Positions 3,572-23,358 of a DNA stretch of 30,012 nt are shown piece after piece; within the stretch, counting starts at the first letter, position 1, and every line of letters starts with the position of its first letter. The DNA lies in the UHGV virus genome UHGV-0120925; one strand, 5' to 3'. Under the pieces are notes generated by a model that had not been told where the DNA came from, ran no database searches, and saw nothing but the letters and a program-made list of their open reading frames with translations. This DNA comes from a virus. The translations under genes were made by a program, and so were the position numbers.

Positions 3572-3598
3572 CCCCCCGCGCTAAGCGTGGTTGTTTTT
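3572..3598. terminator. Rho-independent terminator hairpin shared by the lipoprotein gene (plus) and J (minus)
   Basis: CCGCGC-TAA-GCGTGG stem (one G-U pair) followed by TTGTTTTT on the plus strand; the complement gives a U-rich tail after the J stop. Confidence 0.55.
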
Positions 3599-7493: not shown

Positions 7494-7503
7494 ATCGCGT
7501 CCA

Positions 7504-7528
7504 TAAAAAAAGCCACCGTTAGGTGGCT
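7504..7528 (-). terminator. Strong intrinsic terminator between I and J
   Basis: On the minus strand AGCCACC-UAAC-GGUGGCU is followed by six U residues, ending 10 nt before the J start codon. Confidence 0.55.
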
Positions 7529-7546
7529 TACAGTGGGTGGTTTGGT

Positions 7547-8131: not shown

Positions 8132-8841
8132 TACATCAAATCCTTATAGCGCAGAATTTTGATGGTACGGTCACGATAATAGCCACCGTATGGAATACGC
8201 TGACTTAGCTGGCCATACATGTGGTGAAGGAGCACATTACCCTCAAGCAAAATACCCGCGTGGTTTGGGACTGCGGACTGTACCTGCATGATCACCATGT
8301 CACCTGGCTGGGAAGGCCCGTCGAACTCCCTGAATCCACACTCATACCAGTTGTCCATGTAGAGGTTTTCGCCCTGCTCCCACCAGTGACGATCCACGCT
8401 GTAATTCGGTAACGTAATACCGTGCTCAGTACGGAAGTAATCCATGATGAGAGACCAGCAGTCGGCGTGACCGAGCACAAACTGGCGACCAGTTAACGGG
8501 CGATCACCACGAGGCATGACGGTACGAATATCCCCTTCAGGCCAGGATGCAATTACCCATGGCAATTCAGTGGCATCGCACATCAGCATGTCGAGTTCAC
8601 TGGGCTGGGTTGTCGCGCCGTCACCAGGATGGCTGTGCACGATAGCAACTACTGTGCCCTGCTCTTCAGCCGCTGCATAATCTTCAGGAGACAATTCAAA
8701 CTGCTCAGTCGGGGATTCAGCCTGATTTCTGCAAGGGATGTATTTCTCTACTCGCCCCTTCTGTATGACAACGCCACAGCATTCGTCTGGACACGATGCG
8801 GCCGCGTGCGCCAGAATGGCGCTAACTGTTTTGTCGCGCAT
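8131..8841 (-). CDS. K: Tail assembly protein K (JAB/MPN plus NlpC/P60-like)
   Basis: HSHP metal-binding motif and Cys/His residues typical of lambda gpK. RBS GAGAGG. Position between L and I. Confidence 0.88.
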   Translation of the reverse strand: MRDKTVSAILAHAAASCPDECCGVVIQKGRVEKYIPCRNQAESPTEQFELSPEDYAAAEEQGTVVAIVHSHPGDGATTQPSELDMLMCDATELPWVIASWPEGDIRTVMPRGDRPLTGRQFVLGHADCWSLIMDYFRTEHGITLPNYSVDRHWWEQGENLYMDNWYECGFREFDGPSQPGDMVIMQVQSAVPNHAGILLEGNVLLHHMYGQLSQRIPYGGYYRDRTIKILRYKDLM

Positions 8842-8843
8842 GA

Positions 8844-9602
8844 TTATCCTCTCAGAAGTGAAGCCCCGGGGAACCCGCCATAATCCAGCTGCTCATTCTC
8901 TCCGAAACGAGGTTTGCAGCCCGTTGACAGCAGTCCGGAGCAAACATCCTGTGAAGGATCGTCCACACGGTTGCCGTCTTTATCGAACCAGCCGTTTTGC
9001 CCGGCGTAGGTGCAGCCGTTCCCGGTTTTGTACCAGCCCCGCATGCACCACGTGCACATTGGCTGAATTTGCCGGGTCGGAATAAGTTGCCCGCGCAGAT
9101 CGGCTGGACTGGAAAGCTCAAACTCTACGGTTTCATCGTCTGACCCTGATTTACGGTCAATGTAATAAACCTGTTTGCGCTCCTCGTTGGGATTCGCAGT
9201 CGGGTTCCCGCCAGGAAAATTTCTTGCGTCCAGGTAGTGTGCAAAGGTGTCATGGATGATCACCTTTGCTTTAGCCATCCCCTGAAATCTTCGGCACAGC
9301 GCGCCAATCGTGCCGCTGATGTTTGCCACGGTGAGAGACGGCCGTGAACTCTGCCCGTCACTGCTGACAGATATGCCGGTCAGTTCATACGGCCACGCGC
9401 CATACTCCTGCCCCTGCCACCACACCGACTTCGGCTCAAGTTTTGACTCGTCGCCGCCTGCGGCGATGATTTCCGCCTCGGTATGCGGGATTGTCTCGTT
9501 GTGAAAGCGAAGAATACCCGCACCGAACGCTGAGCCGTCCACCTCGATCAGGCGGACGCGCTTACCCGGTTCCAGTTTCTGGACATCAGATGAAATACTC
9601 AT
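8844..9602 (-). CDS. L: Minor tail protein L
   Basis: Similar to lambda L (WQGQEYGAWPY..., Cys-rich C-terminus). Start placed at ATG 9602 because it forms an ATGA overlap with the M stop; the longer track ORF from 9692 is an upstream extension. Confidence 0.85.
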   Translation of the reverse strand: MSISSDVQKLEPGKRVRLIEVDGSAFGAGILRFHNETIPHTEAEIIAAGGDESKLEPKSVWWQGQEYGAWPYELTGISVSSDGQSSRPSLTVANISGTIGALCRRFQGMAKAKVIIHDTFAHYLDARNFPGGNPTANPNEERKQVYYIDRKSGSDDETVEFELSSPADLRGQLIPTRQIQPMCTWCMRGWYKTGNGCTYAGQNGWFDKDGNRVDDPSQDVCSGLLSTGCKPRFGENEQLDYGGFPGASLLRG

Positions 9603-9937
9603 GGATGGTATGCCTGTATGAATGTGCTGCTGAGGGTGTATTTTTTGTTGCCGTGGGTAGATATCTGGAAGGATTCCGCGCGCCATAAACATGAAGGCTC
9701 AAGCGGCGGCTTCCAGATAAATGACTTCCACCCGGCATGTCTGTTGAGAAAGTTTTTAATGGCCTGAATGTAAGCCTCGTCACCGGTAAAGCTCACGCTC
9801 CACTGAGGTGTTACCGGGTTGATACCGTCTCCGGCCACCTGCGCATAGCCATCGCCAAACTGTGCCTTTCGGGTACGAAAATTTGTATCAACCTGAGAGG
9901 CAACCTTTGGGCACCAGCTGAAGGTTTCGACTGCCAT
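9599..9937 (-). CDS. M: Minor tail protein M
   Basis: Similar to lambda M (FGDGY.Q, GGWKSF.W.PP). Start at ATG 9937 with RBS AGGGGG, directly after the tape-measure stop. Confidence 0.85.
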   Translation of the reverse strand: MAVETFSWCPKVASQVDTNFRTRKAQFGDGYAQVAGDGINPVTPQWSVSFTGDEAYIQAIKNFLNRHAGWKSFIWKPPLEPSCLWRAESFQISTHGNKKYTLSSTFIQAYHP

Positions 9938-9939
9938 GG

Positions 9940-12900
9940 TTAAACCCCCTTGATTAAACGCCACAGAGGCGATCCAGGCATGCTGGCCTGTTCATTAATG
10001 ACGCCAGTGATGGCATCCTTAAGCTGCCAGCCTGCTGCTCCGGCAGTACCCTGACTGGACGCCTGTGGAGATCCGCCCTGAATATTGATATCGCCGAAGT
10101 TAACTGAAGGCACGCCGCCAGAGACCTGCGGAGTACCAACTGCCCTAACGCCAAGCGAACCGTCAGCTGCCCGCGTGAGTGGCATAATGGCTTCCGGTCC
10201 TGCCTCGGCAAAAACCCCTGCGCCTTTGGCAAAAGCAAACAGCTGAGGCGTCTGGAAAACGCCATTGCTGAAAGCGCTCAGGGACGGAGAGTCGTAAACA
10301 TTACCCTTCGCATTAAAGGTGAAGTTCGCCCCAGCATTCTGAATAGCGGTACCGCTGCTGGCGGTAGCGGATGACGAAGCCCCAAAACTGAACAGTGAAC
10401 CAATTGAGCTAACGCCATTAGCAACAGCCATATTCACCAGCACGTTCTGGATAATCTTCAGTACGCTGACGCCCCAGTCCTTCCAGCTGTCAACGTTGCC
10501 ATTGAGCATGTCGGTGATCGTGGTGACCGCGCCCCCCATAGCCTGCTTCATGCCGTCAGCGGCCATGGAAGAATAGTCAGTAGCTTCGTCCACCCAGTTC
10601 GCATAACCCTCAGACAGTCCCGTCATCCAGTCGTCACGCTGCGCATCAGAAGCTGCGTAATATCCCTCCTGGTCGCGCAGACGCTCCTCGAGATAGCGCT
10701 TATTAAGTGCCAGTCCCTGCTGATAGAACGTCTCGTCGATTTCACCAGCCTGACGCTGGCGGAGAAGATCGGTATTCTTTTGCTCGAACTCCTTACGCAG
10801 ATTGAACTGCTCCTGAAGTCTTTCACGGAACCTGGAGCCCTGCCCGTAGCCCAGCAGTTGCGCTTCATTGGCTGCGCGGGCGCTGGCGTTACTGTCAGCA
10901 AGGTTGGCTTCGTAATTTCGCAGTTGCTCACGTAATTTAACCTGGTCAATCAGCGCAGCATTCTGCAATACCGTCTTTTTCTGGGCTTCTGTCAGAGAAG
11001 CAAGTTCGCCCTGACTAACCTGGTATTTAACCTTCGCCAGTTCAGTATTCTGGCCTTGCAGGGCAATCTGCTCTTTTTGCTGTTTGATCAGCTTGTCATA
11101 GGCATCAGCTGTTTTTTCCGCCTCGGATTTCCCGCCCTTATGGCGGCTTGAGTCACGAATAGCTTGCAACTGCCTGGCTGACTCAACTTCCATGCTGACA
11201 TACTTCTCACGCCAACCAGCAGGGAGATTAAGGTCAGATGCATCGAATTCCGCCTGCTTGCGGGTTTTGTCCAATCCCTTAAGACCGGACAACTCAAGCT
11301 GTCGCTGCGCCTTGTCTATAGCTTGCTGCTGCTTATTATCAAGTGCAGGAAGTACAGGCCCTGCATATTTTGGTGGGGACACTGCTGTAGACTGTCTGGA
11401 AACCTTGTTCAGACGGTCATACATCTCTGTAAGATAACTTACGGCGCCAGCCATTTCTACTGTTTTATTTATAGCCTGATCAGTTATGTCGTTTATTAAC
11501 TGTTGTGTTTGCTTTCTTTTATTGAGCATTTGCTCAAGTCGGCCTTCTTCAACCGCAAGTTCTGAAGCAAACTCTGCTGATTTCTCAACCGCATCGTTAT
11601 ACAGCCATGTTCCATCTGAAGCAGAATTGGCTGCTAATTTTGCGTTATAAAGTTGATTGGATAATTCAGCAACTTTCTGCTTCTGCTGTTCAATCGCACT
11701 ATTTTGAGCATCCAGTGAAATATTCGCCTGTCCAAGGTTGGCGGATATCTGCGTCTGAGACATTGATTTCAGATTATCTCGTACCTGCTCGATTGTGTCC
11801 GCATATTGGATTGCAGATTCCCTGGCTTGTTCTTGGCGTTGATACATCGTGTACCACGCCCCAGCACCCAACATTAAAATTCCTGGCAAACCACCAACTA
11901 ACGACAAAAGCCCCGTAGCGCCAGACTTGAATAAATTCATTACCGATGTTGATCGGTTGAGTGCTTCTTGCGACGCTGATACTGCTTTATTTGACTGAAC
12001 GAGAGTGGCATTGGCGGCTATCATTTCACGCCGTTTGGCAATAGAATTTTGTGTAGCTGTCGCTTCTGCATTTGTGTTTTTTGCAAGTTCCAACTCGGAT
12101 AGCGAGAGCTGATAAGCACGCTCGGCAGCAATCGCATCTGCTGCCGCCTTTCGTTGTGATTGGGTAGCAGATTCAGCCCTTGCAGATGCGAGCGCAATTT
12201 CGTTCTTTCTGGCATCTATTAATTGCGCCGTTTGGTTCCCAAGATCGCCAAACATCCCTCCAAGATAGCGAGCTCCACCTATTGCAGCCAAAGCTCCGGC
12301 AGCCGTAGCCACAGTGTCGATATTGTCAGAAACTGTATTCAATACAGCAACAAGAGCACTTGTCGCACCAGTAGCTTCATTAGCTCCACCTACCCATGCC
12401 ATGAAAGCATTTTCGACTTTCGTCGTGGCAGCAGAAACGGTCTGCGGCATTGCCTCAAATTCACCACGCATAGTGCCAAGTTGACTTATCAGGGCCGGGA
12501 CAACTTTATCTGCGGTTAGCATCCCCTGATCGGCCATTGCCTTCAGATCTTTACGAGCTACACCCATCCCAGCGGCCAGCGCACGGATAACTCGATCACC
12601 GTTTTCGTTAACAGAGTTGAATTCCTCGCCCCGCAGAACGCCCTGAGCTAATGCCTGACTAAACTGGGTGATAACAGAACTTGCCTCTGCCGTGCTGGCG
12701 CCGGATAGCTTTAGTCCAGTAGAAATGGCCTCGGTTACATCCAGAACTTGCTGCGAACTGTATCCGTATTCACGCATTGATGCGGCGGAACGCGCAAAAA
12801 GACTCGCATTATCAGAGAAGGCGGTTCCGGTTCGTTGGCTAATATCCATCAGCGCCCGCTGAGACTCCGTGAAATCATCAGACGATTGGGAAGCCTGCTT

Positions 12901-13206
12901 TAGCCTGGCATTAACAGAGCTCCATTCATCGGCCAGCGATATAAGATGACCAGTCGCAAATACTCCAGCAAATGCACCTGCCATTCCCAGCGCTGAGGCC
13001 TTCGCGGTGTTTATTTGACTAGTTACCTCAGCTAAGGCACGCTGAGTTTCACGCGAAGCTGCGGCCGCTTGGCGTCCTCCAGTCTGCATTACCCGGTAAT
13101 AGTCATTCCCCATTCTTGAAGCACGAGAAATTTCAGACTGAAATGACTGAGAGTTTGCAGATATTTTGATGATCAGTTCGCGCAACGTAGCCATATTTTC
13201 ACCCAT
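9940..13206 (-). CDS. H: Tail tape measure protein
   Basis: 1088 aa, coiled-coil and Ala/Gln-rich, at the position of lambda H between T and M. Start could be ATG 13206 or 13194. Confidence 0.9.
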   Translation of the reverse strand: MGENMATLRELIIKISANSQSFQSEISRASRMGNDYYRVMQTGGRQAAAASRETQRALAEVTSQINTAKASALGMAGAFAGVFATGHLISLADEWSSVNARLKQASQSSDDFTESQRALMDISQRTGTAFSDNASLFARSAASMREYGYSSQQVLDVTEAISTGLKLSGASTAEASSVITQFSQALAQGVLRGEEFNSVNENGDRVIRALAAGMGVARKDLKAMADQGMLTADKVVPALISQLGTMRGEFEAMPQTVSAATTKVENAFMAWVGGANEATGATSALVAVLNTVSDNIDTVATAAGALAAIGGARYLGGMFGDLGNQTAQLIDARKNEIALASARAESATQSQRKAAADAIAAERAYQLSLSELELAKNTNAEATATQNSIAKRREMIAANATLVQSNKAVSASQEALNRSTSVMNLFKSGATGLLSLVGGLPGILMLGAGAWYTMYQRQEQARESAIQYADTIEQVRDNLKSMSQTQISANLGQANISLDAQNSAIEQQKQKVAELSNQLYNAKLAANSASDGTWLYNDAVEKSAEFASELAVEEGRLEQMLNKRKQTQQLINDITDQAINKTVEMAGAVSYLTEMYDRLNKVSRQSTAVSPPKYAGPVLPALDNKQQQAIDKAQRQLELSGLKGLDKTRKQAEFDASDLNLPAGWREKYVSMEVESARQLQAIRDSSRHKGGKSEAEKTADAYDKLIKQQKEQIALQGQNTELAKVKYQVSQGELASLTEAQKKTVLQNAALIDQVKLREQLRNYEANLADSNASARAANEAQLLGYGQGSRFRERLQEQFNLRKEFEQKNTDLLRQRQAGEIDETFYQQGLALNKRYLEERLRDQEGYYAASDAQRDDWMTGLSEGYANWVDEATDYSSMAADGMKQAMGGAVTTITDMLNGNVDSWKDWGVSVLKIIQNVLVNMAVANGVSSIGSLFSFGASSSATASSGTAIQNAGANFTFNAKGNVYDSPSLSAFSNGVFQTPQLFAFAKGAGVFAEAGPEAIMPLTRAADGSLGVRAVGTPQVSGGVPSVNFGDINIQGGSPQASSQGTAGAAGWQLKDAITGVINEQASMPGSPLWRLIKGV

Positions 13207-13236
13207 AAAAAAACCCGCTTGATAGCGGGTCGTGAG
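13207..13236 (-). terminator. Intrinsic terminator immediately upstream of the tape-measure start
   Basis: On the minus strand ACCCGC-UAUCAA-GCGGGU is followed by seven U residues and then the ATG of the tape-measure gene. Confidence 0.55.
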
Positions 13237-13425
13237 TTATAAACTGTCTTTTCTTTTGTGAGCGACTTGTATTAATAAATCTATTTGCGCATCTTGTTTT
13301 TTATTTATCTCTTTAAGGGCTTCAACTTGTTCATTTGCCCTTGTGCTAAACCGTATTAAATAAAAAATCACAATTAGATTTATCAACCAGCCGAATATTC
13401 CAAACACTACTACCAGTGGTTCCAT
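13237..13425 (-). CDS. Small single-pass membrane protein (moron between T and tape measure)
   Basis: Strong RBS AAGGAGG 4 nt before ATG 13425. 62 aa with one hydrophobic helix (PLVVVFGIFGWLINLIVIFYLI) and a charged tail. Lambda has no gene at this position. Confidence 0.6.
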   Translation of the reverse strand: MEPLVVVFGIFGWLINLIVIFYLIRFSTRANEQVEALKEINKKQDAQIDLLIQVAHKRKDSL

Positions 13426-13482
13426 AACGCCTCCTTTTCTTAAGGAAAGAGCGTATCGCCACATTGATGACATGTGAAGCAA

Positions 13483-13761
13483 TTATTGTGTCGCAGCTGT
13501 AAGAGCAGCCTCAAGCCCTGCAAACGGGTCCTTCGGTTCTGATTGCTCATCGCCACCCCATCGCAGGATCGCATCGTCCAGCGGTACTTTTGCCCCCTGC
13601 GAACCGTAGATGGCAGAGACGAGCTGGGCTGCCTGAATGTCGCCACGGATATCGCCAACCGGACTTTGCCTGTCGAACTCAATCCACATCAGAAGCTCGC
13701 TTGCCGTCATATTCTGCCGAAGCTCTGAGAGCGTGCGCCCCATCCGGAGCGCAAGCGACAT
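13483..13761 (-). CDS. T: Tail assembly protein T region, expected to be made as a G-T fusion by -1 frameshift
   Basis: Sequence ...LRMGRTLSEL...ELLMWIEFD...GDIRGDIQAAQLVSAIY... matches the phage tail T family. The frame is open upstream to 13821, overlapping the end of G. Confidence 0.8.
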   Translation of the reverse strand: MSLALRMGRTLSELRQNMTASELLMWIEFDRQSPVGDIRGDIQAAQLVSAIYGSQGAKVPLDDAILRWGGDEQSEPKDPFAGLEAALTAATQ

Positions 13762-13769
13762 CAGAAACT

Positions 13770-14153
13770 TTACCCCGGGGGTTGAGACTTTTCCCGCGCT
13801 TCGTCCGCATTGTTGATCAGGTCAAGCGCCTGTTTGAGCAGACGTGAGTGCACGGGCCCGTAAATTTCACGCACCTGCTCTTCTTCGTCTACGCTGAATA
13901 CCGGTTGCTTATCGGTGTCACACAGAACGTCAATGAAGAGCACCACGTCAGCGCAAAGATTACGGTGCGCCTTTTCCGATACCGACACATTTTCATCGTC
14001 GGCCCCCCCTTTCACCACTTCCTGCCAGCGCAGCCAGGCTTCACCTGACGGCTCACGGAGAACCACTTTGACGCCTTCCCACTCAGGAACGGCGACCGTC
14101 TTATGACGAAATCCCGACATCTTAGCCAGGGCGAGATTTTTAATATTCTTCAT
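13770..14153 (-). CDS. G: Tail assembly chaperone G
   Basis: Position directly after the tail tube gene, RBS GAGAGG, acidic protein, followed by the overlapping -1 frame T ORF. Confidence 0.8.
   Translation of the reverse strand: MKNIKNLALAKMSGFRHKTVAVPEWEGVKVVLREPSGEAWLRWQEVVKGGADDENVSVSEKAHRNLCADVVLFIDVLCDTDKQPVFSVDEEEQVREIYGPVHSRLLKQALDLINNADEAREKSQPPG
13788..13795 (-). other. Candidate programmed -1 ribosomal frameshift site GGGAAAAG
   Basis: On the minus strand the G frame reads CGG GAA AAG, six codons before the G stop. A -1 slip of the Lys tRNA from AAG to AAA enters the T frame (predicted junction ...AREK/VSTPGVKFLMSLALR...). Resembles the lambda GGGAAAG site but with one extra A. 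Confidence 0.45.
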
Positions 14154-14161
14154 GAGACCTC

Positions 14162-14605
14162 TCAGGAGCCAGACTCGATGTTTTCAGGCTTACCTTTCAG
14201 GCGCAGGGAGAACGTTGCCGCCACTACGCCGTTGGTACCGGAAGACCAGGTGTGCTGGCGGATTTCAGCCAGGAACTTAAAGCCCTTGCCGGACGGGAAG
14301 ATAACCTGGAACGCGTAGGTCGTATCGTTGTCATACGCTTCACGCAAGGCGTCCTGCGCCTGATTCTTGTAGAAGTTGCCGGACAGAGAGATTTCTGACG
14401 GAGAAGACAGGCCGTTGATGTTCTCCTGCTCGGTAGAGCAAAGTGTTGTTACGTCGATATCCTGCTTCTGACCACCGGTGAACTGAATTTCTTTGATGGT
14501 GCAACTCAGATCGAGGAAGGTTGCTGAATCCATCGTTTCTTTGGTGGCTGGCAGGGAGGAAATAAGGATCTTCGTCAGCTGCGATTTTTCATAAAGTGCA
14601 GACAT
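14162..14605 (-). CDS. Major tail (tube) protein
   Basis: 147 aa at the position of lambda V between the tail terminator and G. RBS AGGAGA. Hairpin directly upstream. Confidence 0.7.
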   Translation of the reverse strand: MSALYEKSQLTKILISSLPATKETMDSATFLDLSCTIKEIQFTGGQKQDIDVTTLCSTEQENINGLSSPSEISLSGNFYKNQAQDALREAYDNDTTYAFQVIFPSGKGFKFLAEIRQHTWSSGTNGVVAATFSLRLKGKPENIESGS

Positions 14606-14611
14606 ATCTGT

Positions 14612-14645
14612 CTCCTGGAAAAAGAAAACCCGCCATTAGCGGGCT
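14612..14645 (-). terminator. Terminator-like hairpin between the tail terminator gene and the tail tube gene
   Basis: On the minus strand AGCCCGC-UAAUG-GCGGGUU (one G-U pair) is followed by UUCUUUUU and then the tail tube RBS. Confidence 0.45.
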
Positions 14646-14663
14646 CGTTGGGTGAATTAATTG

Positions 14664-15011
14664 TCAGGGGGTAACTTTAAAATCCAGGGTGGCACGGTAG
14701 AGCCGACGGTCTGGCTCGTATCCGTGGATTTTTACCACCTCTGTAGGGTTTAACGGCTTAAGCGAAGAGAGCGCCAAATCTCTCAGAGAGCGTGATTCTT
14801 TTATGGTCGTTGAATACACATCGACCTGAACGGAAACCCTGCTCTCTGCCTGGCCACACATCACGTCAGCGGAAACATCATCGACGATGGAAAAGATAAT
14901 CCAGGGTGGAGTGACCGACGGTTTCCCGTCACTACCTAATGGCGCAACATAGGGGTATACCCGTCCCTCTGCCAGGGTAGAAAGCAAGGCGTAGATATTA
15001 TCTTCATTCAC
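14664..15011 (-). CDS. Tail terminator protein (gpU-like)
   Basis: GTG start overlapping the upstream stop (GTGA), SD GAGGTG. Position before the tail tube gene. Family assignment from recalled motif pattern only. Confidence 0.65.
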   Translation of the reverse strand: MNEDNIYALLSTLAEGRVYPYVAPLGSDGKPSVTPPWIIFSIVDDVSADVMCGQAESRVSVQVDVYSTTIKESRSLRDLALSSLKPLNPTEVVKIHGYEPDRRLYRATLDFKVTP

Positions 15012-15457
15012 TTGCTCAGCACCTCATCAATAGCCTGATTCATCCTGGCAATGGCGACGCTGGCGGCCTCTTCCTCGCGCGTATCGTAAGCGGGTCGCAC
15101 AAAAGGATGCGCAGGCATGTTCGCAGTGCCAAGCTCCACAAAGCGCCAGTAAAAGGCGTTTCTCGGGTTATTCGCCTTCATCGTGTTATCGCTGTTTCCG
15201 GTGCGCGGGTTAACGCCACGAATGTGGACACCGGAAGAAATTTCCCCGCGGCGGCGGCTTTTTTGGGTCACCACCACCACGTTTTTTTTCAGTTTGCCGG
15301 TTCGTTCAGGTGCCCTTTCTATCACCTCATCTTTCAGAACCTCAGCACCAGCTCGAGTGGCATCACGCAGAACTTTGTTGTTTTCGGCACGGCTCAGTAA
15401 TTCCAGATCGCGGGATATCTCTTCAAGGCCAGAAAAATCCAGAGTGATATCAATCAT
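15008..15457 (-). CDS. HK97 gp10-family tail-completion / head-tail adaptor protein
   Basis: ATGA overlap with the upstream gene. Motifs ...ELGTANMPAHPFVRPAYD... are typical of the HK97 gp10 family. Confidence 0.72.
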   Translation of the reverse strand: MIDITLDFSGLEEISRDLELLSRAENNKVLRDATRAGAEVLKDEVIERAPERTGKLKKNVVVVTQKSRRRGEISSGVHIRGVNPRTGNSDNTMKANNPRNAFYWRFVELGTANMPAHPFVRPAYDTREEEAASVAIARMNQAIDEVLSK

Positions 15458-15792
15458 TTTTCCGCTCCATTTTTACAGAGTATTTCCAGCCTGGTGGCTT
15501 TACTGTCGGGTATGGGGGGGCTGATGATATTCAGTACCGCGCCTTTAAATGGTCCTGTGAGCACCTTTAATCTTGACGCAGCAGTCACATCACGCCGGAA
15601 ACGGACCCACACCCGGATCGTTGCCTGCGCCGTTTCCGCCCCCGATTGCAACTGCTCCCTGCCACTGATACCCAGCACTTCCGCCCATATGGTCTTTCCC
15701 TCCTGCCACTCTTCAACCGGCTGGCCTGTCGTATCGCGAAAAGAAGAAAAGTTCAGGATAGTGATACGATGGCGTAATCGACCTGCCTGCAT
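15454..15792 (-). CDS. Head-tail joining (head closure) protein
   Basis: RBS AGGAGGG. N-terminus ...RLRHRITI... is typical of the phage head-tail joining family. Position after the gp6-like connector. Confidence 0.72.
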   Translation of the reverse strand: MQAGRLRHRITILNFSSFRDTTGQPVEEWQEGKTIWAEVLGISGREQLQSGAETAQATIRVWVRFRRDVTAASRLKVLTGPFKGAVLNIISPPIPDSKATRLEILCKNGAEK

Positions 15793-15800
15793 AATCCCTC

Positions 15801-16121
15801 CTACGTTCCCGGTCTTTTGCGGTGCTGTTTGAGAATAGCCTCAACACCGAATGGAATAGTATTGACGCTGTCGTGACTTACTGGCTCTCTGTTCTCATAC
15901 CAGTGCGATACAAGCAACATCAGGGCCAGCTTGACATCGTCATCAATTACCAGTCCATCCGGGTCATCTTCCGGAACAGCGTCATCATAAAGATGGCGAT
16001 TAACAATTTTTTCGGCATGTTTCAGAGAGGCATTAAGGTACAGTTCCAGCATTACATCTTCGGCATCGTCATCACTGTCGATGTGGCATTGGTAGCGAAG
16101 CTCTTGTATGGATGGCTTCAT
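15801..16121 (-). CDS. gp6-like head-tail connector protein
   Basis: Acidic ~106 aa protein with ...LKHAEKIVNRHL...LALMLLVSHWYENRE... typical of the gp6 family. ATGA overlap with the upstream ORF. Confidence 0.72.
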   Translation of the reverse strand: MKPSIQELRYQCHIDSDDDAEDVMLELYLNASLKHAEKIVNRHLYDDAVPEDDPDGLVIDDDVKLALMLLVSHWYENREPVSHDSVNTIPFGVEAILKQHRKRPGT

Positions 16122-16330
16122 TTGGTTTTCCCGCGTTTTGTTACCGCTGGCTCTGGATCTGACTCTGCAGCGACATGAACATCGCCACCACCAAATTTAA
16201 TAATGCGAAGTTCGGCAGCAATTTCCTCAGCGCGAGCAGGTAGCTCACCGTCCGAATACACCCCAGCGGGAATGGATTCGACAATACAACCATCTGGGGA
16301 CCACTTAAGTTCACGCAGTAATTCAGGCAT
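16118..16330 (-). CDS. Hypothetical 70-aa protein between major capsid and connector genes
   Basis: SD GAGGTG before ATG 16330, and translationally coupled (ATGA) to the connector gene. No recognisable family. Confidence 0.5.
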   Translation of the reverse strand: MPELLRELKWSPDGCIVESIPAGVYSDGELPARAEEIAAELRIIKFGGGDVHVAAESDPEPAVTKRGKTK

Positions 16331-16339
16331 AAATCACCT

Positions 16340-16362
16340 CGAAAATCGGGGCCGAAGCCCCA
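16340..16362 (-). terminator. Hairpin immediately downstream of the major capsid gene
   Basis: On the minus strand GGGGC-UUCG-GCCCC is followed by GAUUUUCG. Expression-balancing hairpins after capsid genes are common in phages. Confidence 0.45.
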
Positions 16363-16367
16363 CAGAA

Positions 16368-17576
16368 TTAAGCGCCAGTGCCGATCTGCAGCAGTTTAAT
16401 GGCCTGAGAATCCACCAGCATTCCCCCGGTGCGTTTGGTGGTATAGAAACCAACGAATGGTTTTTTGGTGTAGGGGTCACGAAGAATGCGGGTGCCGATG
16501 CGGTCAACGATGGTATAGCCGCGTTTAAAGTTACCGAACGCAATGGCTTTCGCATCAGCAGCGATATCCGGCATTTGCTCATTCTCAGCAACGCCATAAC
16601 CCGCCAGAGAGGAAGGCTGGCCCAGCTCAAGGCCCGGACGCCAGAGATAGTTACCCTCTGAGTCCTTCAGAATGCGAACCGCAAACAGACTGTTGTTGTT
16701 CATCATGAACTTAGCGCCGTTGCGGTGCACCTTGCGCATGGTGTAGACCAGCTTGATAATCGCATCGGCCGTCACACCCGCCGCCGCACCGGAAAGAATG
16801 TGCTGCAGGGTGCCAAAAGCACGGGTTTTATCGTCATCCAGAGAAGAGGCATAGGCCAGAAAGCCTTTCGGTTTTTTCGTACCGTTGCCGCTGGTAAAGG
16901 CGATTTCTTCCTGCTCTGCAAACTCAATTGCCAGTTCGCTGTTGATCCAGTCTTCGACGTTGAAAAAGGCATCATCCAGCATGGTTTGAGTCGCCTGCGG
17001 GTTACCGTAAATTTCTCCCATGAACGGCTCAATCTGACCGAGTTTAGACGCATCGGTTTCCGGGCGGGCATCAGTTTCACCAACCCAGCCGGAAGCCGTA
17101 CCGCCGAGATTAACCAGTTTTTTATAGTTAGCGCCGCCGACTGTGATGGTTGTCGCCTCCTGGCGCATCACCACTTCATCTTTCAGAAGATTAAGGATCG
17201 TGCGATCCAGCTCTTCCGGCACGGCGTAGCCACCATCTTCATCCACACCGACCTGCAGAGCTTTGCGTTCAAGTTCGCGCAGCCCGTCATCTTTACCCTT
17301 ACGCATAAAGTCAATGAAAGCGGTTTTATGCTCGCTTGCGGCTTTGCTCTGATAACCACCAGTTGGACGTTTAACCTGCTTCAGTTCCTCTTCCAGCGCG
17401 GATTTAAGCTCATCCAGTTCAGACAACTTGCCGTTTAATGTTTCAACCTCCCCCGCCAGATTGCCCTTTTCCTGTTCAACTGCTTCCAGGCGCTTATCGT
17501 TCTTTTCTTTGAACGCATCAAACTTCGCCTGCAGTTCCTGCGCGACCTGCTCTACGTCTTTAACGTCAACTGACAT
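16368..17576 (-). CDS. Major capsid protein, HK97 fold family
   Basis: 402 aa, RBS AGGAG. Position after the prohead protease. N-terminal coiled-coil delta-domain-like region followed by a capsid body. Confidence 0.9.
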   Translation of the reverse strand: MSVDVKDVEQVAQELQAKFDAFKEKNDKRLEAVEQEKGNLAGEVETLNGKLSELDELKSALEEELKQVKRPTGGYQSKAASEHKTAFIDFMRKGKDDGLRELERKALQVGVDEDGGYAVPEELDRTILNLLKDEVVMRQEATTITVGGANYKKLVNLGGTASGWVGETDARPETDASKLGQIEPFMGEIYGNPQATQTMLDDAFFNVEDWINSELAIEFAEQEEIAFTSGNGTKKPKGFLAYASSLDDDKTRAFGTLQHILSGAAAGVTADAIIKLVYTMRKVHRNGAKFMMNNNSLFAVRILKDSEGNYLWRPGLELGQPSSLAGYGVAENEQMPDIAADAKAIAFGNFKRGYTIVDRIGTRILRDPYTKKPFVGFYTTKRTGGMLVDSQAIKLLQIGTGA

Positions 17577-17589
17577 AATTAACTCCTGA

Positions 17590-18243
17590 TTAAAATTTGA
17601 TGTTTTTCAGTGCATCCAGTGCGGTACTCACTTCATCAACATCACGCTGTGAAAGTGAGCCATAACCCCCGGCCATGAATGCTTTAGCCTGGGTGCGTGA
17701 GAGCCCAACATCGCGCAGGACTCGTTCAATACTTTTTTGAGAAGGGATTTCTCCGCGGGAAAATGCGCTTTTGACATCACTTACCCGCGCTTCATCGTTC
17801 GACGGAAACGTTACGAGACTGACTTCCCACAGGTCGATCTCTTTGAGAAGGAACACGCCCTTAACACGGTCGTACTCCCAGTCTTTCAGCATGTAACCAA
17901 TAGAAAGGCCGGTTAAAGAACCGGCCTTCATGTGGGCGTGTGCGCGTTTCGAAAGGGGATCGTCATCAATGAGTAACCGGCCTTTAACATAAAGGCCAAC
18001 CTCATCTTCTTTCATCTCAGTGTAAATACCGATGGGTTCATCCATACGGTGCTGCCAGAGTAATGCAGGGAGAGCATTCTTTTCTTTCCATGCCTGAAGG
18101 GAGGCCGAAAAAGCGCCTGGCACAACAACATCATCGTAGCTGTCCTTTACGCCAAAAACAGAGCCATAGCCTTCAAACTCCCCGCTGTCGCTGACAGACT
18201 TTAGCTGTAGCGGAATATCCAGCCGCTGTTTAGTCATCGGCAT
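17590..18243 (-). CDS. Prohead protease (HK97 family)
   Basis: 217 aa between portal and capsid genes, overlapping the portal 3' end. Sequence ...GYGSVFGV.DSYDDVV.PGAF... is typical of this family. Confidence 0.88.
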   Translation of the reverse strand: MPMTKQRLDIPLQLKSVSDSGEFEGYGSVFGVKDSYDDVVVPGAFSASLQAWKEKNALPALLWQHRMDEPIGIYTEMKEDEVGLYVKGRLLIDDDPLSKRAHAHMKAGSLTGLSIGYMLKDWEYDRVKGVFLLKEIDLWEVSLVTFPSNDEARVSDVKSAFSRGEIPSQKSIERVLRDVGLSRTQAKAFMAGGYGSLSQRDVDEVSTALDALKNIKF

Positions 18244-19459
18244 TATGTTGCTCCTCGGTTGTTTTGTTCTTGCTGCTGTCTGACGGCTTCGTCGTCATGT
18301 TCATTGGCGTAAGGTAAATATCTCCGCCTGCGCGTGGGTTAAGTTCTTCAAGTTCCCGGCAGTCATTTGGTGAGTAAATCCCCCAGTTAATGCCTGTTGA
18401 ATACGCCTCAAATCGCGACTTCATATCCCCGCGCAGCAATGCGCCGGCATTGAATTTTGCGTAGTACACACCCTGCTTTGATTCCTTCACCAGCCCAATG
18501 TTGATTCGCTGCTCAATGCGGGTCATATACGGAACGAGTGAATAATTGATAAACCCCATGCCGAGGTTTTCAATATTGTTAAACGTAGAGCGGTCAGTGT
18601 TCTGCACCATGTGCATCGGCACCCGGAACAGGCGGCATATTTCCTCCAGCTGAAATTTTCTGGTCTCAAGGAACTGACTGTCTTCCGCATTGAGCGCCAT
18701 CGACTTCCAGTCCAGTCCCATTTCGAGAATCATTGGTCGGTGCGCGTTGCTCAGCCCGAGGTGACGATCCTCAAAATCTTTTTTCAGCCTTGCGTAAGCA
18801 GCATCAGTGAGAGTTTGTTCAGTACGGAGTACGCCGGAGGTAACCGCGCCATTTGAGAACAACCGAGCCCCATGTTCCTCTGTTGCCATTCCCAGAGATA
18901 TTGCTTCTCTTGCATAGGCTATAGGGTTGAGCCCCACCAGTCCGTCAAAGGTAAGCGTTCTGACATGCCAGATATCATCCTGCCCAAGCACATCTGTTGA
19001 ACCATCGGGGAATGTTACCTGGTAAACCGGCTGCCACTGGCTGTTAAGCTTTGGTTCAACACACCCGGGGTCAATAGGAAGCAGCTCCACCACCTCGCCA
19101 AGCGCTTTAACTTTGTAGGCGTAAAAATTACCGCGAAGACAAAGACAGACAATGACCAGCTCCCAGAACTCCTGGGGGGTCATGTAATCATTTGGCTTCA
19201 TCGTCAGTAATTTATGCAGCCTTTCAGAAGTCGCTTTTTGTTTACTGTTTCCGGTTATCTTGTACAGGTTACAGGGCAGCATACCCATCGACTCAGCAAG
19301 AACCCTGATACAACCGAAAACTGCTGTAAGCCGCATGGCTTTCTGGCTGCTTACCCTTTTCCCTGTATAGGTGTCGTAAGTCATTCCCACTGCTTCAGCG
19401 AGTTCTGCCGGAGTAGTGACAGGGGCGTCACTTTTTTTGAACATTCCGGGGAAAAACAT
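18230..19459 (-). CDS. Portal protein
   Basis: 409 aa directly downstream of terL. Typical HK97-type portal length and position. Confidence 0.88.
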   Translation of the reverse strand: MFFPGMFKKSDAPVTTPAELAEAVGMTYDTYTGKRVSSQKAMRLTAVFGCIRVLAESMGMLPCNLYKITGNSKQKATSERLHKLLTMKPNDYMTPQEFWELVIVCLCLRGNFYAYKVKALGEVVELLPIDPGCVEPKLNSQWQPVYQVTFPDGSTDVLGQDDIWHVRTLTFDGLVGLNPIAYAREAISLGMATEEHGARLFSNGAVTSGVLRTEQTLTDAAYARLKKDFEDRHLGLSNAHRPMILEMGLDWKSMALNAEDSQFLETRKFQLEEICRLFRVPMHMVQNTDRSTFNNIENLGMGFINYSLVPYMTRIEQRINIGLVKESKQGVYYAKFNAGALLRGDMKSRFEAYSTGINWGIYSPNDCRELEELNPRAGGDIYLTPMNMTTKPSDSSKNKTTEEQHNADD

Positions 19460-19644
19460 CAGTCAGTCCCTCCTCGCAATGTTTTCCCGGCCAGCGAAAG
19501 CGTGCGGGAAACCAGCCATGACCAGATAAGGCAAAGCATACCCGCACTGATTAAGCCTCCAGGCGGATAAATCATCCATACACCAAACGAAAGCAAAATA
19601 GCGCCCATCACCCCGATCAGTGGGGCGAGAATCATCAGGATCAT
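19459..19644 (-). CDS. Small two-helix membrane protein between terL and portal
   Basis: RBS AAGAGG before ATG 19644. Stop overlaps the portal start (TGATG). Two hydrophobic segments in 61 aa. Confidence 0.5.
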   Translation of the reverse strand: MILMILAPLIGVMGAILLSFGVWMIYPPGGLISAGMLCLIWSWLVSRTLSLAGKTLRGGTD

Positions 19645-19654
19645 AACTGCCTCT

Positions 19655-21412
19655 TTATAATGAACGGACGCCGTAACTTTCCAGATGGTCAGAGAGGCTG
19701 TCCTGTTGTTCGCCGCCGTTTACAAGCATGCGGCTCATTGCGGTAAACAAGGCGGCAGGCCCGTCTATTTTCGCTTCTGGCGTGGATTTGTTCGGAAAGA
19801 TATTGTCGTTTTTGTCAGGCTTGACGGTGACGTTAGACATCATCCAGTTCATAACCGGATGATTGCTGTGATGAAAACGCCCGCCATAAACCAGAGACTC
19901 CACCTCTTTCATTGACTCAGAAAAGTTTCTGACCGTCTGCGGAACCTCCACCAGCGGTACACCCTCTTCTGCCAGAGCCAGGCTAAACTGCGTTGCGCTC
20001 CACGGATCGAATCCCGTTTCCTTCAGGTTTTCGCCGCTAATCCATTCCAGAAAATCAGCCTTAATCTGCGCGTGATCGATAACATCACCATCAGTCAGTT
20101 CCAGCTTCCCAAGCTCAGCCCATTTACGGTACATCTGCGCCATTTGAGCGGAACATTTTTCCAGCCGCCCTTCGGGTAACCAGAATTTAAAGTCTGCATG
20201 CGCGTGACCGTTGTCTGCCCGCCAGAGTTTTACTGCTGCGCAAATATCAATCTTGTGGGCCAGATCCACGCCAGCCCACATCGGGTAGGTTTTCAGCTCA
20301 TGACGTGGGGCTATAAACTCACAGTTTTCCCACTTAATCATGTCCATCCAAGCTGACTCAGCGGTCACCCAGATATTCATGTGCTTGGTGAAAAAGTTAA
20401 CCCTGGCGGAAACCTGTTCTTTGGCCTTCTTAGCCAGACGGCGAAGGTCATCCCAGCGCTTACAGATACCGAGTCCGGGGTTAGCCTTTTGCCAGACCGT
20501 TTCATCAAACGGATCATCATCTTTATCCAGGGTGAAGATGATGGCGAAAAAAGTGTCATCCTTCACCGCGCCTTCCACTTCGCTGTTATAGCCACGCAGC
20601 ACCTTAATGGCATAATCGCGCAGCTCGTAACAAATCCCTTCTTTATTAAACCCGGCTGTCGTTATGCCAAACAGAAGAGACTGCAATCGTGCGCCGGTTG
20701 CAGTCTCCAGAACATCCCAGACATCACGGGTTTTATGCGCATGAAGTTCGTCGACGATGCCACAATGGATATTGAGACCATCCAGATTGTTGGCATCAGA
20801 AGAAAGCGGTTCAAACTTGGATGCTGTCTGCTCCTGGTAGATCGCCAGTTTATTGAATTCAAACAGTCGCCCCAGTGTGGGTTTCGCTTTTTTAACCATG
20901 TTTTTCGCATCTTCAAAAACGATGCGAGCCTGATCCCGCGTTGTCGCTGCGGAATAAACCTCTGCCCCACCCTCACCATCGGCGCCAGCCATATAAAGAC
21001 CAACACCAGAAGATAATGTCGACTTGGCGTTTTTACGGGCTACCTCGTTATATGCTGTGCGAAACCGGCGGACCATCACCGGACGACCGCTGCCATCATT
21101 ACGCAGCACAACTTCGCCTGTTTCTTCATTTACCAGGGGGATAACAAAACCGAAGATGTTGATCAGAATGAAAACATGCCAGTCCATCAGCTCAATCGGC
21201 TGGCCTGCCAGTGCTCCTTTAACATGAGGCACGAATTTATAAAAATTGAGGATATGTTGTGCGCGGGGCTCGCTGAAATAGATGCCACGTTCTTCACCGT
21301 GCTTCAGATCATCAAGAAATCGCTGACAGGAAAGACGGACAAATTCACAGGCAATAACCTCCCCGGCAACGACGCGTTCGGCGTAACGTATGCCATCAGT
21401 AACTTTTGCCAT
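19655..21412 (-). CDS. Terminase large subunit
   Basis: 585 aa with ATPase and nuclease regions typical of phage TerL. Start overlaps the terS stop. Confidence 0.93.
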   Translation of the reverse strand: MAKVTDGIRYAERVVAGEVIACEFVRLSCQRFLDDLKHGEERGIYFSEPRAQHILNFYKFVPHVKGALAGQPIELMDWHVFILINIFGFVIPLVNEETGEVVLRNDGSGRPVMVRRFRTAYNEVARKNAKSTLSSGVGLYMAGADGEGGAEVYSAATTRDQARIVFEDAKNMVKKAKPTLGRLFEFNKLAIYQEQTASKFEPLSSDANNLDGLNIHCGIVDELHAHKTRDVWDVLETATGARLQSLLFGITTAGFNKEGICYELRDYAIKVLRGYNSEVEGAVKDDTFFAIIFTLDKDDDPFDETVWQKANPGLGICKRWDDLRRLAKKAKEQVSARVNFFTKHMNIWVTAESAWMDMIKWENCEFIAPRHELKTYPMWAGVDLAHKIDICAAVKLWRADNGHAHADFKFWLPEGRLEKCSAQMAQMYRKWAELGKLELTDGDVIDHAQIKADFLEWISGENLKETGFDPWSATQFSLALAEEGVPLVEVPQTVRNFSESMKEVESLVYGGRFHHSNHPVMNWMMSNVTVKPDKNDNIFPNKSTPEAKIDGPAALFTAMSRMLVNGGEQQDSLSDHLESYGVRSL

Positions 21413-21909
21413 CAGTCCCTCGAATTAAGAAATTGACTTAACAGATCATCATCGTCTGGTTTGTCTTTACTGACCTTAGACCTGCTGGAAGGCGTCATAC
21501 CAAACTCCGCTAACATCGCGCGAAGTCGCTTCCAGGCATCAGCTTTCATCATGGCTGCCGGATGCGGCTTGATCATGCGTATTTCACGCTCTTTCCCTTC
21601 ATCAGCATCATCATCGCTGTATACCGCATAGGTATAACCTTCCCGATCCAGCGTTTCACAATGATGGCGGTATTCCGTATATGCCTCTACCAGCAACTCC
21701 AGAGCCCTGGCATCCAGCTGAGATATGACGCCAATGGCATCAAGTTCTTCGGCCATCCGCTTAAACCAGTACTTCCCCTGCTTGTCGAAATGCTTGGGAA
21801 CTGGGGGGACCCCTTTAGGTGGCTGCGGCTCGTTTTTGTTGATTGGTCGTTTGGAAGGGTTACCCCTCACCAAACGCAGATGGGTAGGGGTTTTCGGCGG
21901 TCCTGACAT
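21412..21909 (-). CDS. Terminase small subunit (P27 family)
   Basis: RBS AGGAG before ATG 21909. 165 aa with a basic N-terminus and acidic C-terminus. First gene of the minus-strand late operon. Confidence 0.82.
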   Translation of the reverse strand: MSGPPKTPTHLRLVRGNPSKRPINKNEPQPPKGVPPVPKHFDKQGKYWFKRMAEELDAIGVISQLDARALELLVEAYTEYRHHCETLDREGYTYAVYSDDDADEGKEREIRMIKPHPAAMMKADAWKRLRAMLAEFGMTPSSRSKVSKDKPDDDDLLSQFLNSRD

Positions 21910-22443
21910 AATCGAAAACTCCTATTAATCATCGGCTGTGGGACCCCAAAAAAAGTTTTCTAACCTGCGGCGATGTGAAGAAAGGCTAGGCGGCGGTCCT
22001 TTTGGCGCCCGGTTACAGGGATTTGACCTCCCCCTCCCCTCCACATCCGTTGATGGTAATCATTATCATTTGAAGCGTTCACGCCCTGTTTTCGAGCGGT
22101 GGCAAGGCCAGCACAGGCTTTCAAGGTTCGAATCATCATCGGTACACGTAAACGTGCTGTATCACCGGGTGCGATCCGGTCGGTGAGAGAGTATCCCCGC
22201 GCGAGAGCGAGAACGGCGTGAGAACGGGCAACACTGGCAGGGAGTTGGCGCTGACCAATACAGGGAATGTTATGGGATGTGGTGAAGGGTTCATGGACGG
22301 GAATATGTCGCACGTAAAGCGGCGAGGCCCGAGGAGCTATTGCCGAAGATAAGTAGGCCGAATCGGGTCGAAATGGGTCTCCCACCTACCACAGCACCAA
22401 AGCATTTCTCCCGCATCAGCGGGTAACTAAGTGGAGAGTAAGT
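21910..22443. promoter_or_regulatory. Non-coding divergent control region between the late (minus) and early-left (plus) operons; likely holds promoters and the packaging site
   Basis: About 530 bp with no RBS-supported ORF. GC-rich, with short direct repeats (GAGAACGG twice at 22207..22226). Exact promoter and cos/pac positions cannot be fixed from sequence alone. Confidence 0.4.
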
Positions 22444-22632: not shown

Positions 22633-22665
22633 CCGCATCAGCGGGTAACGACAGAGGGTAAGGGG

Positions 22666-22962: not shown

Positions 22963-22984
22963 CCGCCTAACCAGCGGCTTTTTC
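22961..22984 (+). terminator. Rho-independent terminator within the early operon
   Basis: AGCCGC-CTAACCA-GCGGCT followed by TTTTT, overlapping the stop codon of the 98-aa ORF. Confidence 0.55.
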
Positions 22985-23325: not shown

Positions 23326-23358
23326 CGGAGAGTTGCCAAAACACTTTAAGGACAGGTG

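Follow-up and report, generated by a model that had tools for sequence, protein, structure and literature searches.

Terminator-like hairpins in the late operon of an HK97-like prophage: placement, conservation and candidate roles

Why are terminator-like hairpins found between the head and tail genes of a phage late operon? The question is raised by UHGV virus genome UHGV-0120925, of which the whole 30,012 nt was analysed and is called the window here. Its HK97-like late operon runs on the minus strand, so that sense and minus strand coincide for the hairpins. A preliminary description had pointed to one hairpin after the major capsid gene and another before the tail tube gene, and had suggested that such structures set stoichiometry by partial termination or stabilize upstream mRNA. 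Both are found there on the minus strand (Table 1); the ranges given at that time, 16340-16362 and 14612-14645, cover the hairpin and the U run, and the second also includes the ribosome-binding site. The count of at least five structures holds as well, as hairpins are also present before the tape-measure gene, before J and after J. A sixth such hairpin, absent from the preliminary description, lies inside the prohead protease gene.

Table 1. Late-operon hairpins of the window and the genes next to them, in order of position
Feature	Position	Strand	Remarks
Lipoprotein gene, reverse-oriented	3335-3565	+	convergent with J (minus strand)
Bidirectional terminator between convergent J and lipoprotein gene	3576..3590	both	
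Terminator between I and J	7505..7529	-	stem-loop 7529-7510; 8-bp stem, then U7
Terminator of HK97 gene 15 homologue, just before tape-measure gene	13207..13231	-	stem-loop 13231-13212
Small inserted gene ('moron'), HK97 gene 15 homologue	13237..13425	-	
Major tail (tube) gene	14162..14605	-	short 147-aa form
Canonical intrinsic terminator before tube gene	14619..14646	-	stem-loop 14626-14646, U tract to 14619
Tail terminator protein gene, HK97 gp11-like	14664..15011	-	directly upstream of pre-tube hairpin
Small gene 3' of capsid hairpin	16118..16330	-	70 aa, no assigned function
Hairpin after major capsid gene	16347..16362	-	from sequence and fold, dG about -11.3 kcal/mol
Major capsid protein gene	16368..17576	-	402 aa; phrog_10, E 1.7e-96
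Terminator-like hairpin inside prohead protease gene	17896..17929	-	stem-loop 17929-17904

Structure and placement of the hairpins

An intrinsic terminator is taken here to have a G/C-rich stem of about 5-14 bp and a loop of 3-8 nt, and the terminator scan requires at least 5 U in 8 nt, beginning 0-2 nt past the stem. Free energy alone is no criterion, since dozens of coding windows are equally stable.

The capsid hairpin begins 5 nt past the TAA stop of the capsid gene (16368-16370) and reads U-GGGGC-UUCG-GCCCC-G on the minus strand (16362-16347), with a UUCG tetraloop on a stem of five G-C pairs closed by a U-G pair. Next come A-UUUU-C (16341-16346; U at 16345-16342), a GAGGUG ribosome-binding site and the ATG (16330) of the next gene. 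The G/C stem and the loop are those of an intrinsic terminator. The U tract is not: the tail, (G)AUUUUCG, has U at 4 of 8 positions, and the hairpin is not called in the terminator scan. It is terminator-like, but it is no canonical terminator.

The pre-tube hairpin, GAGCCCGCU-AAU-GGCGGGUUU (14646-14626, dG about -13), begins 17 nt past the stop of the tail-terminator gene. It has a stem of 9 bp (5 G-C), an AAU loop and the tail UUUUCUUUUU, which precedes the ribosome-binding site of the tube gene. The stretch 3' of the hairpin is UCUUUUUCC, then AGGAG (14612-14616), then the ATG at 14605. This hairpin passes the terminator scan in stem, loop and U tract. No minus-strand promoter-like site is found nearby that could serve as its partner. 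It is not obvious what a stabilizing hairpin would be good for behind the low-copy connector genes.

Folding energy, proposed earlier as a check, bears out one of the two hairpins and not the other. The pre-tube hairpin in its 105-nt context has z = -3.3, and none of 200 shuffles folds as well, whereas the energy of the capsid hairpin is unexceptional (z -0.5 to -0.9; 35-58 of 200 shuffles fold equally well), and among the stable 28-nt windows of the sense strand it ranks about 37th. Note that shuffle tests are uninformative for the capsid hairpin, since shuffles that keep its runs of G and C refold; it is judged here on positional conservation instead.

The pre-tape-measure hairpin has an 8-bp stem followed by U7 (dG -13, z -5.2). 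The hairpin after J folds better on the plus strand, where the scan finds a match with a TTGTTTTT tail, and its minus-strand fold is weak (z -1.1). The hairpin inside the protease gene, at codons about 105-115, pairs over 11 bp, with a CUUU loop and UUUCUAUU as its tail (dG -19.4, z -5.4).

The operon spans 18,313 nt, of which 296 are intergenic; of the 37 sense-strand windows with the greatest stability, four lie in this intergenic part, where about 0.6 would be expected (P about 0.003, a Poisson estimate). Location thus counts against chance because the stable windows are concentrated in intergenic sequence. The window has four canonical sense-strand matches with at least 8 pairs, and these include three of the few intergenic gaps. 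Across 16 representative relatives, canonical sites number 83 on the sense strand and 41 on the antisense strand, counts that are not independent of one another. A repeated extragenic palindrome or other repeat element was considered and rejected, as no repeat family includes the hairpins; a short CCCGC...GCGGG core is common to only two of them. In Rfam, no match to the hairpins is found at the gathering score or at E <= 1, apart from one chance match.

Conservation among relatives and counterparts in known phages

A hairpin is found at the same place after the capsid gene in 80 of 80 relatives, with several different stems. When all examined relatives, HK97 and lambda are taken together, at least nine different stems occur at this site. 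The number of U in the 8 nt that follow ranges from 0 to 7 among the relatives. Because the stem is always kept while the U tract varies in this way, stabilization of the upstream mRNA would be a reasonable reading of the capsid hairpin.

At the pre-tube site, 22 distinct variants were compared, and the tube proteins of the relatives that carry them are 48-99% identical. Each variant folds (dG -9.6 to -16.7), and a G/C stem and a U tract are present in 22 of 22. The stems themselves differ, e.g., ACCCGCC, GACCGCC, ACCGGC-GAAA-GCCGGU, and CCCGC-UUCG-GCGGG. These variants were assessed by folding each sequence separately, the MAFFT alignment having placed one lineage one column out of register. 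The conserved U tract could instead be a U-rich translation enhancer ahead of the ribosome-binding site.

The protease-gene hairpin is found at the same offset in 16 of 16 representative relatives. Among 59 unique relatives the synonymous-site entropy of the gene reaches its minimum here (0.083; gene mean 0.658), and the stem and U tract together form the gene's strongest island of synonymous-site conservation. The few changes in the stem retain G-U wobble pairing. A complete terminator inside the protease gene thus appears to be held by selection at synonymous sites. Conservation at the capsid and pre-tube sites is a stronger argument against chance than location is. In relatives with a contractile-tail module no hairpins are found around the sheath and tube genes, and for this reason hairpin punctuation is not universal.

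Terminator-like hairpins in lambdoid late operons are already known, and their annotation goes back to the publication of the HK97 genome. In HK97 (GenBank AF069529) several 'putative terminator' features are annotated in the late operon. The one at 6692-6719 is the direct homologue of the pre-tube hairpin in the window, the one at 8398-8422 corresponds to the pre-tape-measure hairpin and is identical apart from one U, and the one at 15107-15129 is the homologue of the pre-J hairpin. All three are near-identical to their HK97 counterparts, and the DNA flanking them is about 91-96% identical to HK97. The HK97 capsid gene, too, is directly followed by a terminator with a tetraloop hairpin (5192-5213, GGGCGGG-GAAA-CCCGCCC), which shares the position of the capsid hairpin but not its sequence. 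Because the head module of the window is of a different lineage, the capsid hairpin is only a positional analogue of this element. Several parts of HK97 are absent from the window: the hairpins after gene 12 and before gene I, the inserted genes 22 and 23 between I and the pre-J hairpin, and the C-terminal Ig-like domain of gp12, which the tube protein of the window lacks. In place of the protease-gene hairpin of the window, HK97 has one at the 3' end of the portal gene.

A similar arrangement is seen in lambda, and this pattern together with the HK97 annotation agrees with the original observation that terminator-like hairpins punctuate the late operon. An ATGGCCC-UUCG-GGGCCAT hairpin lies 2 nt past the E stop of lambda and is followed by a U-rich stretch and the ribosome-binding site of FI. 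A G/C hairpin with a U-rich tail, an analogue of the pre-J element, is located just before J, and a canonical terminator-like hairpin is located inside the protease gene C. There is no hairpin before V. The sequences are unrelated to those of the window, with the possible exception of the pre-J element. The gene C hairpin has no variation among 80 loci, but these are 98-100% identical and 6.7% of windows are likewise invariant. The late-operon hairpins are not annotated in the lambda database record, and no experimental work on them was found in the literature, nor was any transcript-end mapping for HK97-like phages.

In the P22-like phage L, a Rho-independent terminator is predicted after the coat gene, at the end of the procapsid module (PMC8022706). 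It lies within a single-promoter operon under antitermination, and its authors call its role unknown (PMC8022706). Terminators after the coat gene of late operons are described as known, and either partial termination or the stopping of non-antiterminated transcription has been proposed for them (PMC8022706). The P22-like phages are another phage group with other sequences, and the window differs in having several elements, one of them inside a coding region. T-phi of T7 is an experimentally characterized hairpin terminator directly after the capsid gene 10, past which part of the transcription continues. Transcription there is by the phage's own polymerase, and Q-type antitermination is absent. 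The placement after the capsid gene is the same, but the hairpins in the window are predicted from sequence. Inefficient terminators of T7 are also mentioned elsewhere (PMC9163698).

The terminators of lambdoid 'morons' resemble the hairpin at 13212-13231, which ends the small transcription unit of the HK97 gene 15 homologue (by annotation in an E. coli relative, a YebO family protein). They are unlike the capsid and pre-tube hairpins, upstream of which no inserted gene exists in the window or in the examined relatives. For these two hairpins the terminator of an inserted gene was rejected as an origin, their upstream neighbors being the capsid and tail-terminator genes.

Candidate roles in the late operon

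The reading that we favor, with a probability of roughly 0.55, is that these are RNA hairpins of the intrinsic-terminator type, typical of lambdoid late operons, and that they were inherited together with head and tail modules of the HK97-like and related kinds. Polymerase modified by Q would read through them and unmodified polymerase would be stopped, while the capsid hairpin would probably protect the 3' end of the mRNA. It is known from lambda biology that Q-modified polymerase reads through terminators. In an intact phage one promoter would drive the late operon, and a Q-type antiterminator would make polymerase resistant to terminators; during lytic growth the hairpins would be transcribed and mostly read through. 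Their transcriptional job would be to stop polymerase without the Q modification, whether it comes from leak-through at the late promoter, from promoters of inserted genes or from spurious starts. Stopping such polymerase would keep the structural genes silent in the lysogen. This fail-safe would apply to the elements with a conserved U tract, namely the pre-tube, pre-tape-measure, pre-J and protease-gene hairpins. As a terminator, the capsid hairpin would be weak at most. What is conserved in it is the stem with its stable tetraloop, and it would most likely act on RNA as a barrier to 3'-to-5' exonucleases, lengthening the life of the capsid message. From the structures, homology, conservation and orientation described above we infer that the hairpins terminate transcription or affect RNA half-life in these ways.

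The contrasts among the hairpins suggest two different jobs. The stem after the capsid gene is kept without a fixed U tract, the pre-tube site always has both, and the protease gene holds a complete terminator. RNA protection would be one job, and stopping non-antiterminated polymerase the other. In annotation, these hairpin sites should not be read as operon ends.

A less probable explanation is that all of the hairpins act purely on RNA. After endonuclease cuts they would block 3' exonucleases (or RNase E at the 5' end) and so define stable segments, and termination would be irrelevant. The conservation of the stem rather than the U tract after the capsid gene is in line with this, as are the post-tube hairpins of HK97 and several relatives, which lack U tracts, and the dominance of UUCG and GNRA tetraloops. 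Terminator hairpins are reported to raise the stability of upstream mRNA (PMC11696848), and this too is consistent with such a role. However, an exonuclease barrier needs no U tract, and the U tract is invariant in the 22 pre-tube variants and conserved at synonymous sites in the protease gene. There is also no clear benefit in protecting the low-copy connector-gene segment.

Partial termination is unlikely. According to this model each hairpin stops a fraction of polymerases even with Q, and mRNA falls stepwise from head to tail genes, matching the need for each protein. The gene order does run roughly from abundant to rare products (capsid, tube, tape measure, J), and the pre-tube, pre-tape-measure and pre-J hairpins are canonical terminators. 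However, the strongest of the intergenic terminators separates low-copy connector genes from the abundant tube gene, where it would lower the product needed in greater amount. The capsid hairpin is often without a U tract, and intact relatives carry a Q-type antiterminator upstream of the operon. Reportedly, lambda late-gene ratios are attributed to translation initiation, to judge by the title of Sampson et al. 1988 (cited in PMC5712128). In T7 and other phages, terminators that leak and so balance expression have been documented (PMC9163698), and the same idea has been proposed for P22-like phages (PMC8022706). For the window, the evidence on terminator placement, on Q and on lambda does not support the stoichiometry proposal of the preliminary description.

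It is less probable still that the hairpins are leftovers or joints of mosaicism, i.e., terminators that arrived with inserted genes or short shared sequences used in recombination, with no role in late expression. In favor of this reading, the pre-tape-measure hairpin belongs to the inserted gene 15 homologue as its terminator, the pre-J hairpin of HK97 follows the inserted genes 22 and 23, and in one recombinant relative (locus L014) the joint falls at the shared capsid hairpin. Yet no relative has an inserted gene upstream of the pre-tube or post-capsid hairpin, and the window retains the pre-J hairpin without any inserted gene. The stems vary between lineages and always pair, and the protease-gene element is under synonymous-site selection.

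Chance G/C-rich inverted repeats without function are effectively refuted by the comparative data: although the capsid hairpin does not stand out in shuffle tests, equal stability is common among coding-region windows and the 25 terminator-like matches in the operon fall within the shuffle range (20.7 +/- 3.7), the position is conserved with different stems across 80 relatives, HK97 and lambda, and the hairpins show intergenic enrichment and a sense-strand bias.

The favored reading, read-through with Q and arrest without it, has a bolder and less probable version. Sense-strand terminators, one of them selected inside the protease gene upstream of the capsid gene, would form a layered fail-safe that keeps virion proteins unexpressed in lysogens unless Q is present. 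Capsid, portal or tube protein made by leakage might do harm or be detected by host defence systems. No description of an embedded, selected terminator as a general feature of lambdoid head modules was found in the literature. Lambda gene C and the end of the HK97 portal gene offer analogues of the protease-gene element.

The late operon of the window prophage

In the prophage of the window itself the hairpins are probably inherited relics, because Q, the lysis genes and the immunity region have been deleted, and normal expression of the late operon may not take place here. A Q-type antiterminator, a late promoter and lysis genes are absent upstream of the terminase genes. Upstream of terS, the HNH gene breaks off at about 22146, where a kil/ydaE/recE/recT/xis/int segment is joined to it. 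In a close relative, an E. coli prophage, terS is preceded by the gene of an 'antitermination protein', lysis genes and HNH.

Hairpins of the late operon

The virion-assembly operon of the window is complete (3597-21909, minus strand). Its gene order is small terminase, large terminase, portal, prohead protease, major capsid protein, 70-aa protein, head-tail adaptor, head closure protein, HK97 gp10-like protein, tail terminator protein, tail tube, chaperone pair, small inserted gene, tape-measure, homologues of M, L, K and I, and J. Region 13000-15726 shares ~91% identity with phage HK97 and its close kin. The head genes are of a lineage other than that of HK97, common in E. coli and Klebsiella prophages. 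The preliminary description had placed hairpins after the capsid gene and before the tail tube gene (hairpins 1 and 2), before the tape-measure gene, and before and after J. An element is present at each site, hairpins 1 and 2 being on the sense strand and the one after J pairing better on the opposite strand, and a sixth hairpin lies within the protease gene.

Hairpins and associated genes of the late operon
Feature	Position	Strand	Sequence or remark
Sixth hairpin	17929-17904 (with tail to 17896)	minus	GAAGGCCGGUU-CUUU-AACCGGCCUUU, then CUAUU; terminator scan match
Major capsid protein gene	16368-17576	minus	
Hairpin 1	16362-16347	minus	U-GGGGC-UUCG-GCCCC-G
Tail terminator protein gene	14664-15011	minus	
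Hairpin 2	14646-14626	minus	GAGCCCGCU-AAU-GGCGGGUUU; called by terminator scan
Tail tube gene	14162-14605	minus	147-aa short form
Inserted gene (HK97 gene 15 homologue)	13237-13425		
Pre-tape-measure hairpin	13231-13212		called by terminator scan
Pre-J hairpin	7529-7510		called by terminator scan
Post-J element	3576-3590	both; plus-strand pairing better	between J and convergent lipoprotein gene
Lipoprotein gene (phrog_12984)	3335-3565	plus	reverse-oriented

The window hairpins are real and conserved, and such features are already known from HK97-like and lambda-like late operons. The HK97 GenBank record (AF069529) has 'putative terminator' features after the capsid gene (5192-5213), before and after the major tail gene (6692-6719 and 7443-7462), before H (8398-8422), before I, before J (15107-15129) and at the portal gene 3' end. 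The HK97 capsid hairpin, GGGCGGG-GAAA-CCCGCCC-UUUU, has the same place as hairpin 1 but a different sequence. Lambda has ATGGCCC-UUCG-GGGCCAU 2 nt past the E stop; before J it has a G/C hairpin whose tail is U-rich, and within gene C a canonical terminator-like hairpin.

Hairpin 1 begins 5 nt past the capsid stop; after it come A-UUUU-C, the GAGGUG ribosome-binding site and the start codon of the following gene. With just four U in its tail, it is not called by the terminator scan. Among 80 viral contigs whose capsid proteins are 83-98% identical to that of the window, 80 have a hairpin a few nt beyond the stop. Stems include GGGGC-UUCG-GCCCC, GGGGC-UUAG-GCCCC, GGGGC-UAAG-GUCCC, GGGGGC-GACA-GCCCCC, GGGGC-GUAU-GCCCC, GGGGCGCGG-AA-CCGCGCCCC, CCGGGAGC-GCAG-GCUCCCGG, GCGGGGU-UUCG-GCCCCGC and GUGCCCGC...GCGGGCAC. 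The 8 nt 3' of the stem contain 0 to 7 U; the stem is kept but the U tract is not. In one compared locus, L014, the sequence just past the capsid stop (~11210-11250) joins a window-type intergenic left flank to a right flank of the type in another locus, L031. Because this joint falls at the common GGGGCUUCGGCCCC hairpin, it suggests that the post-capsid hairpin can act as a short patch of homology through which modules are exchanged. Four other loci (L029, L063, L065 and L073) have a second canonical terminator, AACCCGC...GCGGGUU with a U run, after the small post-capsid gene, ~1460-1560 nt from the capsid gene start; the window has none.

Hairpin 2 is followed by UCUUUUUCC-AGGAG-ACAGAU-AUG. 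It is homologous to the HK97 putative terminator at 6692-6719, with almost identical flanks and a slight stem difference (GAGCCCGC/GCGGGUUU in hairpin 2, AACCCGCC/GGCGGGUU in HK97). Of 22 distinct variants from relatives with tube proteins 48-99% identical, all fold (dG -9.6 to -16.7) and all keep the U tract directly before the ribosome-binding site. Several stems occur among them; in ACCGGC-GAAA-GCCGGU a G-C pair is swapped to C-G. HK97 gp12 has a C-terminal Ig-like domain of ~87 aa that the tail tube gene of the window lacks, and the hairpin trailing gene 12 in HK97 is also absent. The short form is found in 8 viral contigs as well; in E. coli EC2001 it is flagged by RefSeq as a pseudogene with an incomplete C-terminus.

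The pre-tape-measure hairpin is the terminator of the inserted gene. The first ATG of the tape-measure frame (13206) abuts its U tract and lacks a ribosome-binding site. In the HK97 annotation H starts 12 nt further downstream, at the second ATG (window 13194), which stands behind GGGUGA and is the likelier start. The pre-J hairpin equals that of HK97 save for the loop. In HK97 it comes after two inserted genes, neither of which is present in the window. Since the post-J element sits between J and the convergent lipoprotein gene, it would be a bidirectional terminator. The lipoprotein gene, an insertion that separates J from the side tail fibre gene, has this terminator in common with J.

Energy, location and selection

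Folding energy, proposed as a check in the preliminary description, sets hairpin 2 apart (z = -3.3 in a 105-nt context; 0/200 shuffles fold as well) but not hairpin 1 (~-11.3 kcal/mol), for which dinucleotide shuffles give z of only -0.5 to -0.9 and which ranks ~37th among stable 28-nt sense-strand windows. The 25 terminator-like matches are within the shuffle range (20.7 +/- 3.7). Energy alone is thus insufficient to tell the hairpins from chance, and location is more telling. Intergenic DNA makes up 296 nt of the operon's 18,313 nt, and 4 of the 37 most stable sense-strand windows are intergenic where ~0.6 are expected (Poisson estimate, P ~0.003). Each intergenic gap >30 nt is essentially filled by a hairpin, except the gap before the inserted gene. 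The 16 representative loci together have 83 canonical terminator-like sites on the sense strand versus 41 on the antisense strand, counts that are not independent. In relatives whose tail modules are of other non-contractile types, a ~165-aa gene in the major-tail position is followed, and sometimes also preceded, by a terminator; where the tail module is contractile, no terminator lies around the sheath and tube genes.

The sixth hairpin, among the three most stable sense-strand windows, covers codons ~105-115 of the prohead protease gene with an 11-bp stem and a UUUCUAUU tail. Among 59 unique relatives, synonymous-site entropy reaches its gene-wide minimum here (0.083 versus a mean of 0.658), and the conserved block is exactly the stem and U-rich tail. 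Stem changes are rare and preserve G-U pairing, and the offset is identical in 16/16 representative relatives. These patterns are good evidence that a full terminator-type element is selected even where it limits the choice of codons. Analogues are found in lambda gene C (4484-4505) and at the HK97 portal gene 3' end (3309-3335); in a parallel synonymous-site comparison for gene C, the relatives fetched were 98-100% identical. This embedded terminator is the sole mildly new point of the analysis.

Possible roles

Fail-safe, RNA-protection and partial-termination roles have each already been speculated in the literature. Lambda Q renders polymerase terminator-resistant across the late operon. 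In a close prophage relative from E. coli, terS is preceded by a gene annotated as an antitermination protein, by lysis genes and by an HNH gene, which is the lambdoid arrangement. By this analogy, the U-tract-conserving elements most likely act on polymerase not modified by Q. In the lysogen they would most likely limit leak-through, read-out from inserted genes and spurious transcription, and during lytic growth they would most likely be read through. Since its stem but not its U tract is kept, the capsid hairpin more likely works in RNA, shielding the capsid message from 3' exonucleases. Partial termination is not favoured as the main purpose, because the strongest intergenic terminator lies ahead of the abundant tube gene and trails low-copy genes, Q-type antitermination is present in intact relatives, and lambda late-gene ratios are reportedly ascribed to translation initiation (by the title of Sampson et al. 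1988). In other phages, tuning of expression by leaky terminators is documented (PMC9163698).

State of the prophage

The virion genes are intact over all 18 kb despite what looks like an internal deletion. Of the HNH gene upstream of terS, just the 3' part is left. At ~22146 the window switches to a segment that neighbours kil, ydaE and recE in other E. coli prophages and continues (22146-29828) into recE, recT, xis and integrase. No Q, late promoter, lysis, immunity or replication genes are found between the HNH remnant and the integrase segment. Because the prophage thus looks internally deleted, its hairpins are probably inherited features and not working parts. Adjoining the deletion joint is an exact 17-nt direct repeat, GTTACCCGCTGATGCGG (22411-22427 and 22633-22649, minus strand), each copy with a small CCGC...GCGG palindrome inside; a 67-aa reading frame (22427-22630) lies between the copies. 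The early-region segment also has an Rfam match to the Hfq-binding small RNA isrB (23892-23989, minus strand; 38.2 bits versus a gathering score of 35). At the other end of the window, a Pin-like serine invertase (176-769) adjoins a tail fibre gene (1552-2829, minus strand) as well as a tail-fibre C-terminal reading frame (777-1586, plus strand) that runs opposite to that gene; region 176-2829 looks like an invertible host-range segment.
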